In this document: piece after piece, positions 9,520 through 63,767 of the stretch
Layout of the letters: every line of letters starts with the position of its first letter
How positions within the stretch are numbered: position 1 is the stretch's first letter
Source of the DNA: Minisyncoccota bacterium
GTDB lineage: Bacteria > Patescibacteriota > Minisyncoccia > Phycocordibacterales > UBA1006
NCBI GenBank assembly: GCA_036405175.1
Contig: DASWYC010000002.1
Coordinates: 321,700-385,699, forward strand
Direction: 5' to 3'
DNA: 64,000 bases
Notes under the pieces: generated by a model
Database searches by the model: none
Seen by the model: only the letters and a program-made list of their open reading frames with translations
What the model was told of the DNA's origin: nothing
Translations under genes and position numbers: made by a program

Positions 9520-10383
9520 TTACCACTTCTGCCCTTCGAGTTCTTCAAGAATCTTTTTGGTTTCTTTGGTAAGTTTTCCGTATTCAACCGTCACTACTAC
9601 CAAAAGATCACCCTTTGGCTTAGTGTGGGCGCCAAGTCCCCGCACAGTGATTACATCTTTATGTTTGGTGAGTTCTGGAATACTAATTTCAATATCACCA
9701 TCCCATCCTTTCAGAACATGCTTACCTCCTAGCAATGCCTGCGACAATGGAATTTTAACTTCAGTAATAATATGTTGACCTTCTTTTCTAAATCCTTTTA
9801 CCTGAGCAACCTTGGCGTATACCACCAAGTCTCCAGGATTTCCATTACTGAGCTCTTCTCCATAACCACGGAACTTTAATCGTGATCCATTATCAACTCC
9901 TGGTGGAATAGTTACGTTTACTTTACGCGAACCAACCTTCTTTCCATCTTTATACGTTGGGATTTCAATTTCTTTTGAAACCCCTTCAAGTGATTCTTTA
10001 AACGTAATTGAAACATCGGCTTCAATAGAGCGTCCTTTGCGCACACCACCAAATCCTTCAAAGATTCCCGAGAAAATATCTCCCATATCAAAATCTTCAA
10101 AGTTCACATGGAATCCGCCAGCTCCTCCCCCAAATGGATTAAAGCCACCGCCACCAAAGCCATCAAATCCTTGCGCGCCTGCTGAACCGTACATATCATA
10201 CTGCTTGCGCTTTTGCTCATCGCTTAAGGTTTGATACGCCTCATTCACTTCTTTAAACCTTGCTTCATCACCTCCTTTATCTGGATGATGAGTACGAGCG
10301 TGTTCATAGAACGCTTTTTTGATTTCAGCTTGTGATGCAGTTTTTGGAACACCTAACACTTCGTAATAATCTTTCATGCGCAT
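9520..10383 (-). CDS. dnaJ: J-domain co-chaperone, DnaJ/CbpA type lacking the Cys-rich zinc-finger domain
   Basis: J domain with HPD (DYYEVLGV...HHPDKGG), G/F-rich region, C-terminal substrate-binding domains; no CxxCxGxG repeats. Confidence 0.85.
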
Positions 10384-12254
10384 TAGGCATTGGTGCCTGA
10401 CTCAACCTCATCAGGTGCAATATCTGGTGTTGGAGTATCTTCCTGCTTCATATCTTCAGGTTTTACTTCTGAATAGATTTTCATCATTGCCTCAGAGAGT
10501 GTTTGAGTTTTTGCATCAATCTCCGCACCATCAGTCCCATCCTTAACTGCTTTTAAGTCACTAATTCCTGTTTCAATAGCAGTCTTAGTTTCTGGAGTTA
10601 ACTTTTCTCCATACTCTTTAAGATTCTTTTCTGCAGTAAAGATGGTGTGTTCTGCGGTGTTCTTTTTATCAACAAGATCGCGCTTCTTCTCATCCTCATC
10701 CTTATATGTCTCTGCTTCTTGCTTCATGCGCTCAATATCTTCTTTTGAAAGTCCTGATGAACCCGCGATAGTGATGTTTGCTTCTTTGTTGGTTGCTTTA
10801 TCTTTTGCAGAAACTTTAAGAATTCCGTTGGCATCAATATCAAAGGTAACTTCAATCTGAGGAACCCCCATAGGAGCTGGCGCGATACCATCAAGTGTAA
10901 ACATACCAAGGCTTTTGTTATTAGCTGCCATTGGACGCTCTCCTTGCACCACGTGAATCTCTACCGATGTTTGATTATCCGCAGCAGTAGAAAATACTTG
11001 TGATTTTGATGCTGGAATAGTGGTATTCTTTTCAATCAATTTAGTGGCAATACCCCCACGGGTTTCAAGTCCAAGTGAAAGTGGCGTAACATCCAGCAAG
11101 AGAATGTCTTTAACATCTCCCTGAAGAACTCCCGCCTGAATTGCAGCTCCTTGTGCAACCACCTCATCTGGGTTGATTGATTTGTTTGGATCTTTTCCAA
11201 ATACTTTTTTAACTTCTTCCAAAATGCGTGGCATGCGAGTTTGTCCTCCTACCATCACAATTTCATTAATTTCAGAAGCTGAAAGTTTTGCATCAGCAAG
11301 TACTGACTTAGTGATTTCGATTGAGCGATTTATATATTGCTCTGCAAGTGTTTCAAGTTGTGCACGGGTTACCTTAAGGGCCAAGTGTCGAGGACCTGAT
11401 GCATCAGAGGTGATAAATGGAATGTTAACCTCTGTTTCAAGCGCGGTTGAAAGTTCAATCTTTGCTTTTTCTGCAGCCTCATCAAGACGCTGAAGTGCAA
11501 GTGGATCGTTAATAATAGTGATTCCTGAATCTTTCTTAAATTCGTTAGCAATGTGATTGATGAGTGCTTGGTCAATGTCGCGTCCTCCCATAAATGAGTC
11601 TCCGCCTGTTGCCTTTACTTCAACAACACCATCACCTACTTCAAGAACAGAAACATCAAAGGTTCCTCCTCCAAAGTCAAAAACCACAATTTTCTCGTTA
11701 GTCTTTTTATCAAGACCGTATGCGAGTGCTGCAGCGGTTGGTTCGTTAATGATGCGCTTAACATCAAGTCCTGCGATCTTTCCTGCATCGGCAGTCGCTT
11801 TACGCTGATCATCGTTAAAGTATGCTGGCACCGTAATAACGGCCTCAGTTACAGTTTCACCCAACTTTGCTTCTGCATCAGCTTTAAGTTTTGCCAAAAT
11901 CATTGCAGAAATTTCTTCTGGACGATAATCTTTTCCATCAATTATTACCACAACGCCACCGCTTTCGCCTTGCTTAATGGTGTATGCTGCAGTTTCTTGC
12001 GCTTTTTGAACTTCTGGATCTTTATAAAGATGTCCCATGAAGCGCTTAATTCCATAAATAGTATTTTGAGGATTGGTTACCGCTTGGCGCTTTGCCAAAA
12101 CTCCTACCAATCGTTCTCCATTTTTAGAAATACCAACAATAGACGGCGTTGTGCGAGCGCCTTCGCTGTTTTCAAGAATTTCAGCCTTTCCTCCTTTAAT
12201 GATTGATACTGCTGAGTTGGTAGTTCCAAGATCAATTCCAATTATTTTTGCCAT
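10383..12254 (-). CDS. dnaK: chaperone DnaK (Hsp70)
   Basis: [18 protein letters not shown] and VTPLSLGIET-type motifs ([10 protein letters not shown]); 623 aa. Confidence 0.95.
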
Positions 12255-12272
12255 ACAATTATATATTTAAAT

Positions 12273-12837
12273 TTATTGTTGATAATTTCCGATAATAACT
12301 TGCGCGGGGCGAACAACCGTATTGCCAATCTTCCACCCACTTCGTCCTACTCCAATAACTTTGTGATGAAGTGATTCATCAGTTACGGATTCTTCCTTAA
12401 GAATTTCCTGTGTCGCATGGTCAGGCTCAGCATGGAGCGTAACCGGAATTTGTGCAAGCTGATTATTTTCAAAAATAGTGTTCAGCTGCTTGGCGATGTA
12501 TTCAATACCAGTGCGCCAGTTAGCAGGAACTGATTCCCACACTTCTTTGTTACTCATTGCTGATTCAAAGCTGTCTGAGATGGTAAGAAATTCTTCTAGA
12601 AGGGCTTGCCTGGTCCGTTTGCGGACCTTATCGGTTTCATCCTTCATTTCTTGTTCCCGGTTAATATAGTCAGCTTTTGAGCGCTGCCAACCTTCCAGAT
12701 ACTCCTGGCGTTCTTTTTTAAGGGCTTTCATTTCGGTTTTGAGGCGCTTAACCGTTTGCTGAAGATCTTCTTCAATAAACTCATCGTCGGCTTCAAAATC
12801 GGGATCCTGATCGTTAAATTCATCGGTATTCGACATA
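12273..12837 (-). CDS. grpE: nucleotide exchange factor GrpE
   Basis: coiled-coil N-term, C-terminal beta domain (VIGVGRSGWKIGNTVVRPAQV); ORF track begins at an alternative start 12869, the second MSN... ATG at 12837 fits the promoter spacing better. Confidence 0.85.
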
Positions 12838-12860
12838 GGTAATTCAAAGGTACTACTTGT

Positions 12861-12905
12861 ATTTGACAATTATATAACGGGCGTTTTTACTTTGTCAAAT
12901 ATATG
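12861..12905 (-). promoter_or_regulatory. grpE-dnaK-dnaJ promoter (TTGACA-N16/18-TATATA/TATAAT on minus strand) overlapping a conserved element ATTTGACAAT-N5-AACGGGCGTT
   Basis: read directly; same 25-nt element found upstream of groES (63713-63737). Confidence 0.5.
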
Positions 12906-13077
12906 AATTGAGAGGCTGTGAATATCAAAAAGTCATTAATTATTGAGCTTTTTGAGGCATCTAAGCCTAGTATTGACATAGTTATAGTAGTATGCTATAC
13001 TATTCCTATCTTATTTACTAATCAAAAACACTCAATATATGGCCTGACGAGCCAAAAACCCGTCGCTTACTAAAACA

Positions 13078-14541
13078 ATGAGAAATTCATCTATTATCCG
13101 CTTTGCGATCCTTGCAGGATTTGCAGCATATTGTTTAGTGGTTATCGCTGGCCTTAGCCTAAACGGTTACAGCGAAAATATTAACCTTGTTCAAAGAGTA
13201 TGGGTCAATGACTCATTTCAATGGAAAGGCTTGATAACTCCATTGCAAATCGAAGGAACCAAATTTGAAAGTACCTCACAAAAAATTGCTTTCACCGTAC
13301 CTTGTATGTATGGAGGAAAGAAGTTTGATGTGATTAAAAACACTCCTACCGGGAACAGAATGACAAAGGAAGTGGCCGATTCATTAAGAACTGCTCTTTC
13401 AAGACTCATCTATCCTAAAACGGATTATTTTTACGGAGCTGGAGAATTAAACATTCTTGCTCATAATGCTGATGAAGACCTACAAGCTCTTCTTGGCAAA
13501 GTGCAAGTAAACAAGTTTCATGTGGAGGGCTCAGCCTCTCCAGAAGCCGGTGATGAACTAAGCATTTATCCTAATAAGCTCGAAGATGCAAACCATTCTT
13601 TAGCAGTTAATAGGGGAAAACTCGGTTTTGACATACTTTCAAACATATTCATCAACAATGGTGTAAATCTAAAGAAAGTAAAAGGAACGCACAATGGGCA
13701 CGAAGCTCAGTTGACTTCTCAACAAGCAGACTTGATTGATTTTAAATCAATCATCGATGCTAATCGCGAGAATACAGAGCACGCTACAATGTCACCTCTT
13801 CGTAACTGGAAGGCAGACATTAGTTTAACGATACCAACCAACAAGACTATGTCAGTAACAGTTCCATATCTATGGCTACTATTACTACTATTGCCTTGGC
13901 GTCGTTGGATTGATAGAGCACGCGAGAGTATTCCTTCCTTGAACTTCAAAAAAAGAAGTACTCAGGAGCAACCTCAACACGCGTACTCTGTAGCGCTTCC
14001 CTTCATCCCATGGATTAAGGCTGAATACTTGAAAAGAAAGTTCAGCTTCTCGTGGGAAAAACTTTGGGAAAAGGTTAGTGACTGGTTCTCTGCCCAAAGA
14101 GATGCTGTCAGATTATTCTTCCACGAACTCTCAGTTCGCGTCCGATTCTGGTTTGGCAAACAAGCCGCCAGATGGAGAAGAATAAAGTTATGGTGGTCAG
14201 AGACCTATGCAACCATTAGACCAAGGGTTACTCCTTGTACCGTCTTCTGGCTGTCTCTTCCTCCATTAACTCTTACCATGGCCTCAGGGTACTGGCTGAA
14301 TTCTTGGTTCTTAGTCATAACCTCGCTAATTACATTAGCAGGAGTCGGTATCTATGCTTTCCTTAATTGCCCAAAGGCACAAGGAGTCAAATATACCGAG
14401 TTCGAGGAGGTTGAAGCTGTCGAGGAGAAACCTCGTATGGAACCTATTCAACAATCATGCACTGTAACCGTGCCATGTTGGGTAGCGTACACTGGAGTAC
14501 TAATTATTGTTTCAATGGCGCTTTACATTCTGAGCCATTAA
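13078..14541 (+). CDS. hypothetical membrane protein (N-terminal signal/TM, extracytoplasmic domain, second TM, W/R-rich C-terminal region)
   Basis: 487-aa intact ORF; no recognisable catalytic motif; C-terminal half compositionally odd (W/R/F-rich). Confidence 0.5.
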   Translation: MRNSSIIRFAILAGFAAYCLVVIAGLSLNGYSENINLVQRVWVNDSFQWKGLITPLQIEGTKFESTSQKIAFTVPCMYGGKKFDVIKNTPTGNRMTKEVADSLRTALSRLIYPKTDYFYGAGELNILAHNADEDLQALLGKVQVNKFHVEGSASPEAGDELSIYPNKLEDANHSLAVNRGKLGFDILSNIFINNGVNLKKVKGTHNGHEAQLTSQQADLIDFKSIIDANRENTEHATMSPLRNWKADISLTIPTNKTMSVTVPYLWLLLLLLPWRRWIDRARESIPSLNFKKRSTQEQPQHAYSVALPFIPWIKAEYLKRKFSFSWEKLWEKVSDWFSAQRDAVRLFFHELSVRVRFWFGKQAARWRRIKLWWSETYATIRPRVTPCTVFWLSLPPLTLTMASGYWLNSWFLVITSLITLAGVGIYAFLNCPKAQGVKYTEFEEVEAVEEKPRMEPIQQSCTVTVPCWVAYTGVLIIVSMALYILSH

Positions 14542-14674: not shown

Positions 14675-16396
14675 CTATTTTTTATATAACAACCGTGCAA
14701 CTTTAATTTCATCATAGGAATACTTGCCTCCTCCAGCATCATATGCTGATTTGAGTGATCCCAAGGCACCCTGCCTATTAAACAGCTTATGAATTGCTGC
14801 TATATTTTTAAGCAGCTTTTTATCAAATGATTGTTCTATTGAACGCTTGAGTGGATGCTCGGCAGGATTTTCAAGAATCTTTTCAATATGACTGAGGATT
14901 GTTCCAAAGACCATTCCCCGCTTTTTAATAATCTCTTCAACAGAAAATCCTTCGTTTAATAAATCATACGTAATAGTCACCGTTGATACCTTGGTGGTAC
15001 CAAAACTATCTTCGCCCATCACGGTTCGTGCCTTTACACTTCCGCCACACGCAAGAATAAAGTTAACATGCATTTGATTAAGTTCTTCATTGGTCATTTT
15101 TCCAAAGAGATCCTCGGCGATATCTGATGCATCCCTAAAGACTCCATCTTGCATTAAAATCTGCGGATGCACCTCAAGTGCGCGTTCGTTGAAACCTAAT
15201 AGATAAATTCCTTTTAATGTCCGCACGCGTGAAAGCGCCACATATCCTTGACCATACTCAAATACTCGCGACAAGTCCATAATTGCTCCGTCCAAGCTCA
15301 TTCCTTGGCTTTTATGAATGGTAATCGCCCATGCTAAGCGAAGTGGGATCTGCGCTAATCGTGCTTTTACTTTACCATCTTCTTCAACGGTCCATTCCAT
15401 CTCCTCGACTTCAATCAACTCACCGTTATGTGTTTTTACCACCGGCGTAGTATTTTTAAATTCAATTATCTCACCCAAGGTGCCATTCATATACTTTTCT
15501 GTAGGGTTATTTTTTGTGAACATAACTTTTGCACCCACTTTAAGTTCTAATACTTCTGGAGACAAACATCCTTTTTTAAGATTTTCAATTAACGCTTTAT
15601 TTCCTGTAGTGGTCATTTCATATTTTTTAGTGAATCCAGGAAGCTTGGTGAGCTCTCCTCCATTCAACGTATCCACATCATAATTATGTGAATAGAGTTT
15701 AGTTACCGGAGGCAAGCGTGTTCTATCTTTGTGGATGCGTTCTGTTAAAAACTCATGCGCTTCAAACAAGCGTTCACCGTTACGAAGTGTAGTAAGAATC
15801 TGAAGCAAATCATCATCTGATTGACGATGTTGCTCACTTAAGTAGCACACTACCGGAGCAGCTTGTTCCCATGCTTTACTATTAAATGCAAAAAAAGTTG
15901 GAATCTCACTTTCATCAAATATGTCATTAGGATCCATCTGCATGCGGCGCTGAATTGGTGGTAGCTGAAAAAAGTCTCCCACAAAAATTATTTGAAGCCC
16001 ACCAAATGATTCATCTTTTCCACGCACTGCTCTGCACACGCTATCAATCGTATCAAGCATAGTATTGCTGAGCATAGAGATCTCATCAATAATCAATACA
16101 CTTGTTTTTTGAATACGCTTCACCACATATTCTTTTTGTGCAAGCATATCAAGTTCATATTCTGAAAGACGATCACGAATACCAACTCCACTCCATGAAT
16201 GAATCGTCATACCTCCAATATGAGTTGCTGCGATTCCAGTACTTGCGGTGATTGCATGGCTAATACCGTGCTCTTTAAGATAGGTCACGTATTGATTGAT
16301 CGTATAACTTTTTCCGGAGCCAGGCTCTCCGGTTAAAAAAACATTGGCACCAGTTTTAAGAATAGTAAGTGCTTCTGCCTGAGTCATACTGCTCAT
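14675..16396 (-). CDS. PIF1-family (RecD-like SF1B) 5'-3' DNA helicase with C-terminal HTH-like domain
   Basis: Walker A TGEPGSGKSY, Walker B LIIDEISML, Pif1 signature-like region, SF1B motifs (WAITIHKSQGMS, GYVALSRV). Confidence 0.8.
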   Translation of the reverse strand: MSSMTQAEALTILKTGANVFLTGEPGSGKSYTINQYVTYLKEHGISHAITASTGIAATHIGGMTIHSWSGVGIRDRLSEYELDMLAQKEYVVKRIQKTSVLIIDEISMLSNTMLDTIDSVCRAVRGKDESFGGLQIIFVGDFFQLPPIQRRMQMDPNDIFDESEIPTFFAFNSKAWEQAAPVVCYLSEQHRQSDDDLLQILTTLRNGERLFEAHEFLTERIHKDRTRLPPVTKLYSHNYDVDTLNGGELTKLPGFTKKYEMTTTGNKALIENLKKGCLSPEVLELKVGAKVMFTKNNPTEKYMNGTLGEIIEFKNTTPVVKTHNGELIEVEEMEWTVEEDGKVKARLAQIPLRLAWAITIHKSQGMSLDGAIMDLSRVFEYGQGYVALSRVRTLKGIYLLGFNERALEVHPQILMQDGVFRDASDIAEDLFGKMTNEELNQMHVNFILACGGSVKARTVMGEDSFGTTKVSTVTITYDLLNEGFSVEEIIKKRGMVFGTILSHIEKILENPAEHPLKRSIEQSFDKKLLKNIAAIHKLFNRQGALGSLKSAYDAGGGKYSYDEIKVARLLYKK

Positions 16397-55584: not shown

Positions 55585-56085
55585 CTATTTCCCCACCTTT
55601 TCCTTTTTAGCCTGACACGTAGCGCACAAGCATCCTCCGTGCGGCTTAATGATTTCATCAAAGTACTCCTTTCCATAATCATAGGTAAGTTCGTCACCCT
55701 TTTTGATCTTTTTCCATGAGTAGATAAATACGCGACCCTTTTCAAGATTTGCCTCACAATTCGGTTTGCATTGATGATTAATGTATCGCGCAAGATTCTT
55801 GCGATCCTTTCCATCAATCGTTACCTTACTATTGATTTCAAAGAGATACTTTCCACCTCGAATATCTGCCTCTGCAGGAGTGATTCTTTCTCCGGTATAT
55901 TCAATGATGCGCTGACCAGGTTGAATATCCTGATCCGCAAAAAGTCCCATACCTGCATATGATTTTCCAATACGAACTTTTACATGCGGCTCGGCAAGCC
56001 ATTGCGATGGTTTTTGTGTTTCAGAATTTTTAGCAGACTTCTGAGTATCTGATTTTTTTGTGATCGTTGCTGATTTCGTAGTCAT
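55585..56085 (-). CDS. SET-domain protein-lysine methyltransferase
   Basis: GxG region (RIGKSYAGMGLFA), YLFEIN, NHQCKPNCE (NHSCxPN), ELTYDYG, post-SET CLCATC; Lys/Ser/Thr-rich N-terminal 40 aa. Confidence 0.8.
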   Translation of the reverse strand: MTTKSATITKKSDTQKSAKNSETQKPSQWLAEPHVKVRIGKSYAGMGLFADQDIQPGQRIIEYTGERITPAEADIRGGKYLFEINSKVTIDGKDRKNLARYINHQCKPNCEANLEKGRVFIYSWKKIKKGDELTYDYGKEYFDEIIKPHGGCLCATCQAKKEKVGK

Positions 56086-56174: not shown

Positions 56175-56762
56175 TCAAACAACCTTGTAATCTTTTACAA
56201 CATGTGTGGCAATACCCAACTCAATGATTTGCTTATGAGTTAACAATCTATCTTTGTAAAAGAGATTCCCATCAAATAAGTAATTAAGGGCGGCTTCAGT
56301 TAATCCAATCCTTGAATAATATTTCTTTTGTATATCGTCATACGATTGCAGTTCTTCCACCATTTCTAAAAGCTCTTGCTTGTTTCTTGAGCCGGAAACA
56401 GTACGCATCGTTGCATGAAATACCATATTAGCTCCAGGATATAACACTCTCTTATCTCCCAGTAGAGCAATAATAATTGCTGCGCTTGAGCAGTTACCTG
56501 TTAGGTGAGTAATGATTTCAAACTTCTTTCTTTTACGTAGATTATCAAAGTAGTCATAGATACCAGTTGATACTCCAATTGTTCCGCCAAGAGATTCAAG
56601 ATAAATATTCAAGGCACTCGAACTCTGGAGTTGATTCAACTGAGGAGAGAGCTGATTCTGAATATTTCTTGGAGTATCATTTTGATCTAAGCTACCAGAT
56701 ATGAACACATCGATCATATGATGGTCTGCATATTCCTCAATATTAAATTCTTGTATTTCCAT
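56175..56762 (-). CDS. ClpP-family (S14) serine peptidase-like protein, standalone
   Basis: LESLGGTIG (cf. INSPGG), GNCSSAAIIIALLG (Ser), MVFHAT (His), KDRLLT (Asp) align to ClpP catalytic triad; no clpX nearby. Confidence 0.6.
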   Translation of the reverse strand: MEIQEFNIEEYADHHMIDVFISGSLDQNDTPRNIQNQLSPQLNQLQSSSALNIYLESLGGTIGVSTGIYDYFDNLRKRKKFEIITHLTGNCSSAAIIIALLGDKRVLYPGANMVFHATMRTVSGSRNKQELLEMVEELQSYDDIQKKYYSRIGLTEAALNYLFDGNLFYKDRLLTHKQIIELGIATHVVKDYKVV

Positions 56763-59277: not shown

Positions 59278-60800
<1,523 letters not shown>

Positions 60801-61027
60801 ACTGGAAAACTCTTCTTCTCATCTTTATCAATCACGTTGTGAAAGATTTTATTGTGAGAGAAAGTTCATAGAACAGAACAACTAAACATTCTTGTTTGTT
60901 GTCTTAATAATTGCACATTTAAGTAGATATTTAATTTGTAAGATGGGCAGTTAAAAAAGCTAACTGCAGTGCATCCTATAATGAGGCATCGCGATTAAAA
61001 AGTCAAGCGATTGTGGAAAAACCGCAA

Positions 61028-61720: not shown

Positions 61721-63352
61721 CTAGTACTCCATTCCACCCATCCCCATTGGTTGCTGTGGTTTTTCTTCAGGTTCTTCAACAATTGCCACGTCAGTAGTAA
61801 GGAATGTTCCTGCGGCAGATGCTGCATTTAAGAGTGCATTACGTGTCACTTTTACTGGATCAATAATTCCTGCACTAACCATATCATCGACAAACATGTC
61901 ATTGCGTGCATCATAGCCAGCAGATTCTAGCATTTCCTGCACCTTGTAGACCACCATTGATCCATCGCCTTTACCACCATTAATAGCAATTTGCTTAAGC
62001 GGTGCCTCACAGGCTGCACATACAATTTTATACGCCATCTCTTCTTCTTGAGACACAAATTCTTTTTTGGCATTCTGCACAGCTTGAGCAGCCTTAATAA
62101 GTGCACTTCCTCCCCCCGCAACAATTCCTTCTTCAAGTGCAGCTTTGGTTGCATTTACTGCATCTTCAATCTTGAGCTTAAGATATTTCATTTCAGTTTC
62201 AGTAGCTGCACCTACGCGGATTACGGCAATGCCACCGGTCATTTTTGCAATACGTTCTTGAAACTTTTCTTTGTCATAGACTGAATCAGTATTCGTCATG
62301 AGTGCCTTGAGCTGACCAACGCGTGATTGAATATCTGATTGAGAGCCTTTACCGCCAACAATAATTGTTTCATCTTTTTTCACCACAATTCTGTCAGCCT
62401 TTCCAAGAACTTCAAGCCCTTGCTCATCAAGCTTCATACCTTTCTCTTCTGATACAACCGTCGCACCCACCATAGTGGCAATATCATCAAGAAGCTCTTT
62501 TTTACGATCACCAAATCCTGGCGATTTAATAGCCACCACATTGAGTGATCCACGAATCTTATTCAGCACGAATGTTGCAAGTGCTTCACCGGTTACATCA
62601 TCAGCAATAATTACTAAATCCTTACGTCCTGTCTGTGAAAGTTTTTCAAGAATAGGAAGGATTACTTTAATACTTGAAATCTTTGCATCAGTAATAAGTA
62701 CTGGCGCAGATTCAACAATAGCTTCCATACGTTCCGTATCGCTTACCATGTAGGCAGAAACATATCCTTTATCAAAAGACATTCCTTCAACCACGTCACT
62801 CGTTAGTTCTGTGCCACGAGACTCTTCAACGGTCACCACACCCTCTTTACCAACTTTTTCAATGGTTTCAGCAATAATTGCACCGAGTTCTTCTGATTCA
62901 GCAGAAATGGTTGCTACTTGTTTGGTTTCTTCTGGGGTTGAAATTGGTTTTGACATCTTTTTGAGCTCATCAACAACATCATTGGTTGCGCGCTCAATAC
63001 CATGTTTAATAGCCATCACCTCAAGCCCTGACTCAACATATTTAAGCCCTTCATTAACAATAGCTTGCACTAATACCGTTGCGGTTGTGGTTCCGTCTCC
63101 CGCTTTTTCATTAGTTTTTGAGGCAACTTCTTTAACAATCTCTGCCCCCATGTTTTCAAATTTATCTTTGAGCGAAATTTCTTTTGCAATTGAAACACCG
63201 TCATTGGTGATAGTTGGTGATCCATACCCCTTATCAAGTGCAATATTGCGTCCACGAGGACCAATGGTTACTTTTACCGCATCAGCTACCACATCCATTC
63301 CAGTCTTAATAGCTCTGCGTGCGTCAGCATGAAAAAGAATTTGCTTTGCCAT
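61721..63352 (-). CDS. groL: chaperonin GroEL
   Basis: 543 aa, AAVEEGIV/GGG motifs, C-terminal GGM repeats. Confidence 0.95.
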   Translation of the reverse strand: MAKQILFHADARRAIKTGMDVVADAVKVTIGPRGRNIALDKGYGSPTITNDGVSIAKEISLKDKFENMGAEIVKEVASKTNEKAGDGTTTATVLVQAIVNEGLKYVESGLEVMAIKHGIERATNDVVDELKKMSKPISTPEETKQVATISAESEELGAIIAETIEKVGKEGVVTVEESRGTELTSDVVEGMSFDKGYVSAYMVSDTERMEAIVESAPVLITDAKISSIKVILPILEKLSQTGRKDLVIIADDVTGEALATFVLNKIRGSLNVVAIKSPGFGDRKKELLDDIATMVGATVVSEEKGMKLDEQGLEVLGKADRIVVKKDETIIVGGKGSQSDIQSRVGQLKALMTNTDSVYDKEKFQERIAKMTGGIAVIRVGAATETEMKYLKLKIEDAVNATKAALEEGIVAGGGSALIKAAQAVQNAKKEFVSQEEEMAYKIVCAACEAPLKQIAINGGKGDGSMVVYKVQEMLESAGYDARNDMFVDDMVSAGIIDPVKVTRNALLNAASAAGTFLTTDVAIVEEPEEKPQQPMGMGGMEY

Positions 63353-63355
63353 ACA

Positions 63356-63664
63356 TTAATTATTTTCAACTACAATTGCTAAAATCGACTCTTCGCGGAG
63401 AATCAAGAGATTCTCATCATTTATTTTTACCTCCTCAGGAGTGAATTTTGAAAAAAGTACGGTGTCTCCAACGCTTACTGACATCGGAATAATTTCACCT
63501 TTGTCATTACGCGATCCTGGACCAACCGCAATGACTACCCCCTGTTCTGGTTTTTCTTGGGAAGCAGTATCAGGGATATAAATTCCTGAAGCCGTAACTT
63601 GATCCCTGGTGAGGGCTTTTACGACTACTCTGTTTGAAATTGGCTGTAAATGAACATCATTCAT
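63356..63664 (-). CDS. groS: co-chaperonin GroES
   Basis: 102 aa, mobile-loop and roof-hairpin pattern. Confidence 0.9.
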   Translation of the reverse strand: MNDVHLQPISNRVVVKALTRDQVTASGIYIPDTASQEKPEQGVVIAVGPGSRNDKGEIIPMSVSVGDTVLFSKFTPEEVKINDENLLILREESILAIVVENN

Positions 63665-63696
63665 AGCTACTACTTATCTTGAATTACTAATATGAT

Positions 63697-63745
63697 TCTA
63701 TTGTAGAAAAGTTTTGACAATAGTCAAACGGGCGTTATCGGTGTG
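63697..63745 (-). promoter_or_regulatory. groESL promoter (TTGACT-N16-TACAAT on minus strand) overlapping conserved element TTTTGACAAT-N5-AACGGGCGTT
   Basis: read directly; 20/25 nt identical to element upstream of grpE. Confidence 0.5.
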
Positions 63746-63767
63746 ACAAAAATATCAGATATTCTTG

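Follow-up and report, generated by a model that had tools for sequence, protein, structure and literature searches.

The two chaperone operons, grpE-dnaK-dnaJ and groES-groEL, found on the stretch of DNA analysed here (64 kb, hereafter the window) are each preceded by one copy of a 38-bp dyad, TTTGACAA-N6-AACGnnCGTT-N6-TTGTCAAA, in which the arms TTTGACAA and TTGTCAAA lie 22 bp apart and share one common axis with the inner palindrome AACGnnCGTT. The dyad is genuine and conserved, a cis-regulatory element specific to chaperone operons, and a plausible cognate regulator family goes with it. Judged from the sequence, the dyad is very probably a regulatory site bound by a protein, and the reading that is modestly favoured is that of an operator occupied by a PaaX-like protein, which would act as a repressor over sigma-70 promoters. 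The broader proposal, namely that in the Paceibacteria (Parcubacteria, CPR) a truncated PaaX-like protein may control grpE-dnaK-dnaJ, groES-groEL and its own promoter through the 38-bp dyad, as an undescribed system in the role of HrcA/CIRCE, HspR/HAIR or sigma-32, seems to us evenly poised. The GrpE encoded in the window is identical to HEY1041477.1, an NCBI entry from the metagenome-assembled genome of a 'Candidatus Paceibacterota bacterium'. The positions of the predicted operators, genes and promoters are collected in Table 1.

Table 1. Predicted operators, presumed controlled operons, promoters and PaaX-like genes of sister lineages; positions refer to the window unless a locus is named.
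Feature	Position	Strand	Description
grpE operator (predicted)	12862..12899	-	TTTGACAA-AGTAAAA-ACGCCCGT-TATATAA-TTGTCAAA, 38-bp dyad
grpE dyad, distal arm	12899-12892	-	
grpE dyad, centre	12885-12876	-	AACGCCCGTT
grpE dyad, proximal arm	12869-12862	-	
groES operator (predicted)	63713..63750	-	TTTGTCAC-ACCGATA-ACGCCCGT-TTGACTA-TTGTCAAA, same architecture as grpE
groES dyad, distal arm	63750-63743	-	
groES dyad, centre	63736-63727	-	
groES dyad, proximal arm	63720-63713	-	
grpE-dnaK-dnaJ, presumed controlled operon	9520..12836	-	Pfam GrpE, HSP70, DnaJ/DnaJ_C
grpE	12273-12836	-	
dnaK	10383-12254	-	
dnaJ	9520-10383	-	
groES-groEL, presumed controlled operon	61721..63664	-	Pfam Cpn10, Cpn60_TCP1
groES	63356-63664	-	
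groEL	61721-63352	-	
grpE sigma-70-type promoter	12869..12898	-	TTGACA (12898-12893)-N18-TATAAT (12874-12869), 12/12 consensus
groES sigma-70-type promoter	63700..63727	-	TTGACT (63727-63722)-N16-TACAAT (63705-63700), 10/12 consensus
PaaX-like gene, L094	5001-5519		ribosomal-cluster synteny
PaaX-like gene, L095	5001-5546		ribosomal-cluster synteny
PaaX-like gene, L097	5001-5564		ribosomal-cluster synteny
PaaX-like gene, L014	2331-2891		ribosomal-cluster synteny

The first-pass annotation of this DNA had described a 25-nt element common to the two chaperone promoters and identical at 20 of its 25 positions, and the same identity is obtained when the sequence is read again: the plus strand is ATTTGACAATTATATAACGGGCGTT at 12861-12885, upstream of grpE, and TTTTGACAATAGTCAAACGGGCGTT at 63712-63736, upstream of groES. 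The coordinates originally given for the grpE copy stand, while those for the groES copy (63713-63737) have to be moved down by one base; likewise the element exists as described, but its extent was underestimated, since it amounts to about two thirds of the 38-bp dyad. On the minus (transcribed) strand, positions 12862-12885 at grpE and 63713-63736 at groES both read exactly AACGCCCGTT-N5-ATTGTCAAA, a pattern of 19 specified bases for which about 0.01 matches per 64 kb are expected by chance. When up to three mismatches were allowed, a search of the 64-kb window with this pattern recovered the two operon sites and the symmetric half of the grpE site and nothing else, and none of 100 shuffles gave three; chance does not account for the two copies. 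The grpE dyad (minus strand 12901-12860, TA-TTTGACAA-AGTAAAA-ACGCCCGT-TATATAA-TTGTCAAA-TA) has 8-bp arms that are perfect inverted repeats of each other, and the half-site pattern matches both strands there, as it does at grpE in two relatives (L083 and L086). At groES the distal arm is degenerate, with 6 of its 8 positions matching. The shared element is best explained as the better-conserved half plus the centre of a putative dyad operator, TTTGACAA-N6-(A)ACGnnCGT(T)-N6-TTGTCAAA.

Both dyads overlap promoters of the sigma-70 type, each in its own register. The groES promoter had been read earlier as TTGACT-N16-TACAAT, and the promoter scan returned it unchanged; the earlier reading of the grpE promoter, TTGACA-N16-TATATA, gives way to a better one with an N18 spacer and the -10 box TATAAT, which agrees with the consensus throughout. 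With transcription starts inferred at 7 nt after each -10 box, the grpE promoter lies wholly within the dyad, its -35 box coinciding with the distal arm, its -10 box falling in the variable N6 and its inferred start in the proximal arm, and the groES promoter has its -35 box in the variable N6 of the operator, with the proximal arm filling its spacer. Relative to the inferred starts, the dyad spans about -37 to +1 at grpE and about -57 to -20 at groES, so that its centre lies at about -18.5 in the former and about -38.5 in the latter, some two helical turns apart. This difference in register counts against the repressor reading, and the groES position, centred at about -38.5, would also suit an activator.

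Other features of the same regions were recorded on the way. Upstream of grpE, a near-perfect promoter with a TG extension (TTGACA-N17-TATACT, 12973-13001, plus strand) serves the divergent gene 13078-14541, which encodes a 487-aa membrane-like protein and is not conserved at this place in L083 and L086; a gene for a PIF1-like helicase with a C-terminal HTH_40 (14675-16396, minus strand) is kept near the grpE region in both of these relatives. The motif AAGTAGTA occurs in both chaperone leaders (12851-12858 and 63668-63675, minus strand), 14 nt before the start codon at grpE and 3 nt before the ATG at groES, and is also found in L083, L086 and L093. A complete 16S rRNA gene stands alone at 59279-60807 (minus strand), the window containing neither a 23S nor a 5S gene; it has GGATCACTTCCAAA at its 3' end, and the anti-Shine-Dalgarno core is CACTTCC rather than CACCTCC. 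Because the complement of ACTTCC is GGAAGT, AAGTAGTA may be the ribosome-binding variant of this lineage. A SET-domain protein, a putative lysine methyltransferase, is encoded at 55585-56085 (minus strand) and adjoins a divergent ClpP-like gene at 56175-56762.

Conservation of the element was followed in relatives identified by protein search, whose GrpE homologues are 82, 72 and 67% identical and whose GroES homologues are 93, 83 and 79% identical to those of the window; the grpE comparison comprised the window together with L083, L086 and L088, and the groES comprised the window with L089, L091 and L093. This footprinting, which had been set beforehand as a check on the first reading, found the element kept upstream of both operons and the flanks diverged. 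Upstream of grpE, the four species do not differ in TTGACAA or in the 24-nt run CGCCCGTTATATAATTGTCAAATA, and the 8 nt between them, plus everything outside, have diverged. Upstream of groES, CG(C/T)(C/T)CGTTTGACTATTGTCAAA and TTTTCTACAAT are invariant in the four species, as are the promoter hexamers and most of the spacer, and the relatives retain the distal arm TTGnCA. Among the invariant bases are some that are dispensable for a sigma-70 promoter, namely the GC-rich CGyyCGTT, the arm TTGTCAAA, which lies at +1 at grpE and in the spacer at groES, and most of the groES spacer itself; the inner AACG is not conserved in L086, L091 and L093, which, like the weak distal arm at groES, counts against the preferred reading. 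L083 and L089 derive from a single sample, and L086 and L091 likewise share one, so that in the relatives, too, the element seems to be present at both operons. Farther away, the groES locus L098 (GroES 64% identical) has a variant dyad, TTGACTAAAA-N16-TTTTAGTCAA, at 196-236, which keeps the TTGAC-N26-GTCAA spacing and in which the base change is symmetric in both arms, and no dyad was found at the groES locus L099 (GroES 60% identical). At L098 a TTGACA-N16-TATAAT promoter precedes the dyad, which is therefore placed as a roadblock or leader element would be. Among related CPR, many grpE genes (L018-L038) look leaderless, with TATAAT followed after 6 nt by the start codon; in these lineages the dyad is absent and no PaaX-like gene adjoins grpE.

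In the DNA examined, the motif is confined to chaperone and regulator promoters. With at most one mismatch, CGnnCGT-N7-TTGTCAAA occurs in 380 kb only at the promoters of grpE, groES or the regulator gene, and exact TTGAC-N26-GTCAA gives 11 matches (8 distinct sequences) in 439 kb, against about 0.5 expected from base composition, every one of them 37-105 nt upstream of grpE, groES or the regulator gene; both searches covered the window and loci picked independently of the motif. A collection of 185,579 reference genomes, which excludes this genome and its close relatives, yielded 39 matches to the half-site AACGSSCGTT-N5-WTTGTCAAA where about 35 are expected by chance, distributed among unrelated phyla and in no case beside a chaperone gene. 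One match of this chance-level kind, in an Ignavibacteriales MAG (L045, 945-968), reads AACGCCCGTTGACTATTTGTCAAAAAATG and is much like the groES copy; the bases after it, TTAGTGCACTC, recall a CIRCE half-site. The 8 kb examined there showed no chaperone gene. Other identities considered for the two window sites were set aside: a repeat or mobile element, as there are two copies only and their position is kept in relatives; a terminator of the upstream gene, as no terminator-like site was found; and a known RNA family, as none overlaps either site and the Rfam hits in the window are the 16S rRNA and one tRNA only.

The candidate regulator was met in sister lineages. A metagenome scan with GrpE returned distant relatives only, at most 43% identical, and revealed a PaaX-like neighbour: at L001/3, L014/31, L016/17 and L025 (GrpE 31-43% identical), a conserved protein of about 180 aa is encoded divergently from grpE. 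In seven distant Paceibacteria lineages (L001, L014, L016, L025, L094, L095 and L097) the dyad is located between grpE and the divergent PaaX-like gene, with the same arms 22 bp apart and often with a central ACGnnCGT, and in L097 it forms a perfect or near-perfect 17-bp inverted repeat, TTTTGACAAGTTTTTCA-N5-TGAAAAACTTGTCAAAA. In the sister lineages, then, the dyad goes with the PaaX-like gene. The consensus of 15 operators is TTTGACAA-nnTTnTn-ACGnnCGT-nAnAnAn-TTGTCAAA, and the promoter-proximal arm is identical in 14 of the 15. The two arms coincide in the sister lineages with the -35 boxes of two back-to-back promoters, so that part of the dyad there could reflect the needs of the promoters and not an operator; the fact that the lineage of the window has the same dyad in another register speaks for a protein site.

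The product of the grpE-adjacent gene matches Pfam PaaX_M (PF20803, E=3e-23) and, weakly, N-terminal winged-helix models, has no PaaX_C match, and scores 36 against the TIGR02277 cut-off of 265; family members are 172-196 aa long. Foldseek searches with its AlphaFold model (pLDDT 84) gave PaaX of E. coli W (8a39) and the PaaX-like 3l09 as best matches, and the N-terminal domain of the model matches the winged helices of MarR, PadR and RosR. The family comprises 2274 members at E below 1e-5, and all three members picked blind to context (P0134, P0181 and P0207) are divergent from grpE-dnaK-dnaJ. In several Paceibacteria the PaaX-like gene sits between the divergent grpE-dnaK-dnaJ operon and the rpsI-rplM-rplQ-rpoA ribosomal cluster; the PaaX-like regulator genes have grpE-dnaK-dnaJ and ribosomal protein genes as neighbours, and no paa gene was seen beside them. 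Against a PaaX-like binder in this genome, searches by tblastn and HMM found no PaaX-like gene in the window or in the 10 kb past its end (74 kb of this genome), nor in about 60 kb from its three closest relatives, and none of the best 120 of the 2274 PaaX-family matches lies on the contig of this genome. Viral contigs, scanned for this genome's regulator, gave a negative result as well, and Pfam recognised no DNA-binding domain in the small unknown proteins that are encoded beside the operons in this lineage; the neighbour beyond the end of the window, upstream of groES, is a UvrD/PD-(D/E)XK helicase.

Among characterized systems, the closest operator in structure is that of PaaX, which in E. 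coli is TGATTC-N27-GAATCA (PMC9493321). The likeness lies in an unusual geometry, short inverted arms about three helical turns apart, represented here by TTGACA-N24-TGTCAA (that is, TTGAC-N26-GTCAA) at grpE. The PaaX-type arrangement of 6-bp inverted arms some 26-27 bp apart over the regulated promoter is present at grpE, and the spacing is also found at groES and in 15 operators from relatives. In both systems the operator overlaps promoters and the regulator gene, here the candidate of the sister lineages, is at or near the regulated operon; this candidate combines the Cas2-like PaaX_M domain with a winged helix and has 8a39 as its best structural match. The arm sequence, however, is unrelated to that of PaaX, the arms are 30 bp apart from centre to centre rather than 33 bp, and the conserved central ACGnnCGT is an addition; the candidate, of about 180 aa, is devoid of the C-terminal domain with which PaaX binds phenylacetyl-CoA, and it would act on chaperone operons, whereas PaaX of E. 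coli and Pseudomonas acts on the phenylacetate catabolon.

With HrcA/CIRCE the system shares an inverted-repeat operator placed over the sigma-70 promoters of both the groE and the dnaK operons, and one repressor would coordinate both; the arms, however, are 22 bp apart as opposed to 9 bp in CIRCE, and the candidate belongs to an unrelated protein family. CIRCE (TTAGCACTC-N9-GAGTGCTAA) was absent from the window with up to three mismatches and from every grpE or groES locus examined with up to four. No hrcA, which usually heads an hrcA-grpE-dnaK operon, lies upstream of grpE, where the 487-aa membrane-like protein is encoded, and the domain scan of 58 window ORFs detected no HrcA, HspR, CtsR or RpoH domain; genes for the primary sigma factor, DnaG, RpoB and RpoC are present in the window. 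HspR/HAIR is comparable in that, in many lineages, the repressor gene is linked to the dnaK operon and autoregulated through an inverted repeat at the operon promoter, but the candidate described here is divergent from grpE and not the last gene of the operon, and has a winged-helix/Cas2-like fold and not that of MerR. No HAIR (CTTGAGT-N7-ACTCAAG) was found in the window with up to two mismatches, nor at the chaperone promoters of relatives, and no MerR-domain gene follows dnaJ. The CtsR operator contains GTCAAA, and in some Firmicutes CtsR also controls groE and dnaK. GTCAAA is present in the operator studied here too, but the CtsR box is a direct repeat, RGTCAAA-NAN-RGTCAAA, whereas the GTCAA arms of the dyad are inverted and 26 bp apart; no CtsR box with up to one mismatch was found at any chaperone promoter examined. 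The window search and the scan of 58 ORFs thus bear out the first-pass annotation, which had reported neither CIRCE nor HAIR in either region and no adjoining hrcA; a canonical CIRCE/HrcA system that might have been missed, named at that time as an argument against a new operator, was not found, and HAIR and CtsR boxes are likewise absent. The system resembles HrcA/CIRCE in function and the PaaX operator in structure, and it is a member of neither family as defined.

The operator may be truly shared and nevertheless be bound in this lineage by a regulator other than the PaaX-like protein. This is rather unlikely, even with about 134 kb from this lineage devoid of a PaaX-like gene, with small unknown proteins beside the operons that show no DNA-binding domain, and with a centre motif, CGyyCGTT, that is specific to the lineage: the arms TTGACAA/TTGTCAA and the 22-bp spacing are the same as in the seven lineages in which a PaaX-like gene is adjacent, the wide-dyad geometry matches that of the E. 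coli PaaX operator, and the genome measures at least 668 kb, of which about 10% was inspected. It is improbable that the conserved blocks are the promoter of an alternative stress sigma factor, ECF- or sigma-32-like, overlapping the housekeeping promoter, with TTGnCA as its -35 and CGyyCGTT as its -10. Many ECF sigma factors have a -10 motif similar to CGTT, which speaks for such a promoter together with the conservation of TTGnCA-N9-CGyyCGTT at both operons; yet the roughly 13 nt from TTGnCA to CGTT are short for promoters of this kind, a primary sigma factor is the only one seen in the window, and the dyad symmetry, the invariant downstream TTGTCAAA, the inverted repeat of L097 and the linkage to a winged-helix gene would all be left unexplained.

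A shade less probable again is the absence of any separate regulator, two strong sigma-70 promoters being merely alike in their -35 boxes and AT-rich context and conserved for promoter strength. The arms do contain the -35-like hexamers TTGACA/TTGTCA, and in the sister lineages they do serve as -35 boxes, but the shared block stands in different promoter registers at the two operons, CGyyCGTT and TTGTCAAA (at +1 at grpE and in the spacer at groES) are non-promoter elements that are nonetheless invariant across species, and the pattern is missing from every other promoter in 439 kb. A hairpin in the leader RNA, acting on mRNA stability or as a thermometer in place of a DNA site, is very improbable. 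The grpE dyad folds at -8.9 kcal/mol (z = -3.8) and the L098 dyad lies downstream of a -10 box, as such a hairpin would; but the inferred grpE start is inside the proximal arm and the groES element is upstream of the inferred start, so that, with starts inferred from consensus promoters, the hairpin would not be transcribed. Moreover, the distal arm is poor at groES, and the stem of 10 bp encloses a 22-nt loop and is far from the start codon.

In the reading preferred here, a PaaX-like protein would repress both operons from the dyad. The binder would be an oligomeric short PaaX-like repressor, consisting of a winged helix-turn-helix and the Cas2-like PaaX_M and lacking the PaaX C-terminal effector domain. 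We infer that a protein does bind the dyad, and that in this genome it would be the orthologue of the product of the grpE-divergent gene of the sister lineages, encoded elsewhere in the genome. The effect would be repression and not activation, the bound protein keeping RNA polymerase off both chaperone promoters, and in the sister lineages the PaaX-like protein would act on its own promoter in the same way. The signal that releases the repressor would, on the analogy of HrcA, HspR and CtsR, be heat or proteotoxic stress; we infer likewise the heat responsiveness of the operons and the direction of their regulation. The initial suggestion that a lineage-specific repressor operator was plausible gains support from the conservation of the element, from the absence of CIRCE/HrcA and of HAIR and CtsR boxes, and from the candidate PaaX-like regulator.

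Gene regulation is almost entirely uncharted in the Candidate Phyla Radiation, a large bacterial branch most of which is uncultivated, and full-text searches of the literature gave no description of a CPR heat-shock operator or of chaperone-linked PaaX-like proteins. If the proposed system holds true, it would be the first regulon and operator defined for the Paceibacteria, and it would add a fourth family of chaperone-operon repressors to HrcA, HspR and CtsR. It would also mean that a PaaX-type scaffold has been reused without its ligand-binding domain, and how the stress signal is sensed would then become the question. In addition, the motif could serve to mark stress genes in CPR genomes.
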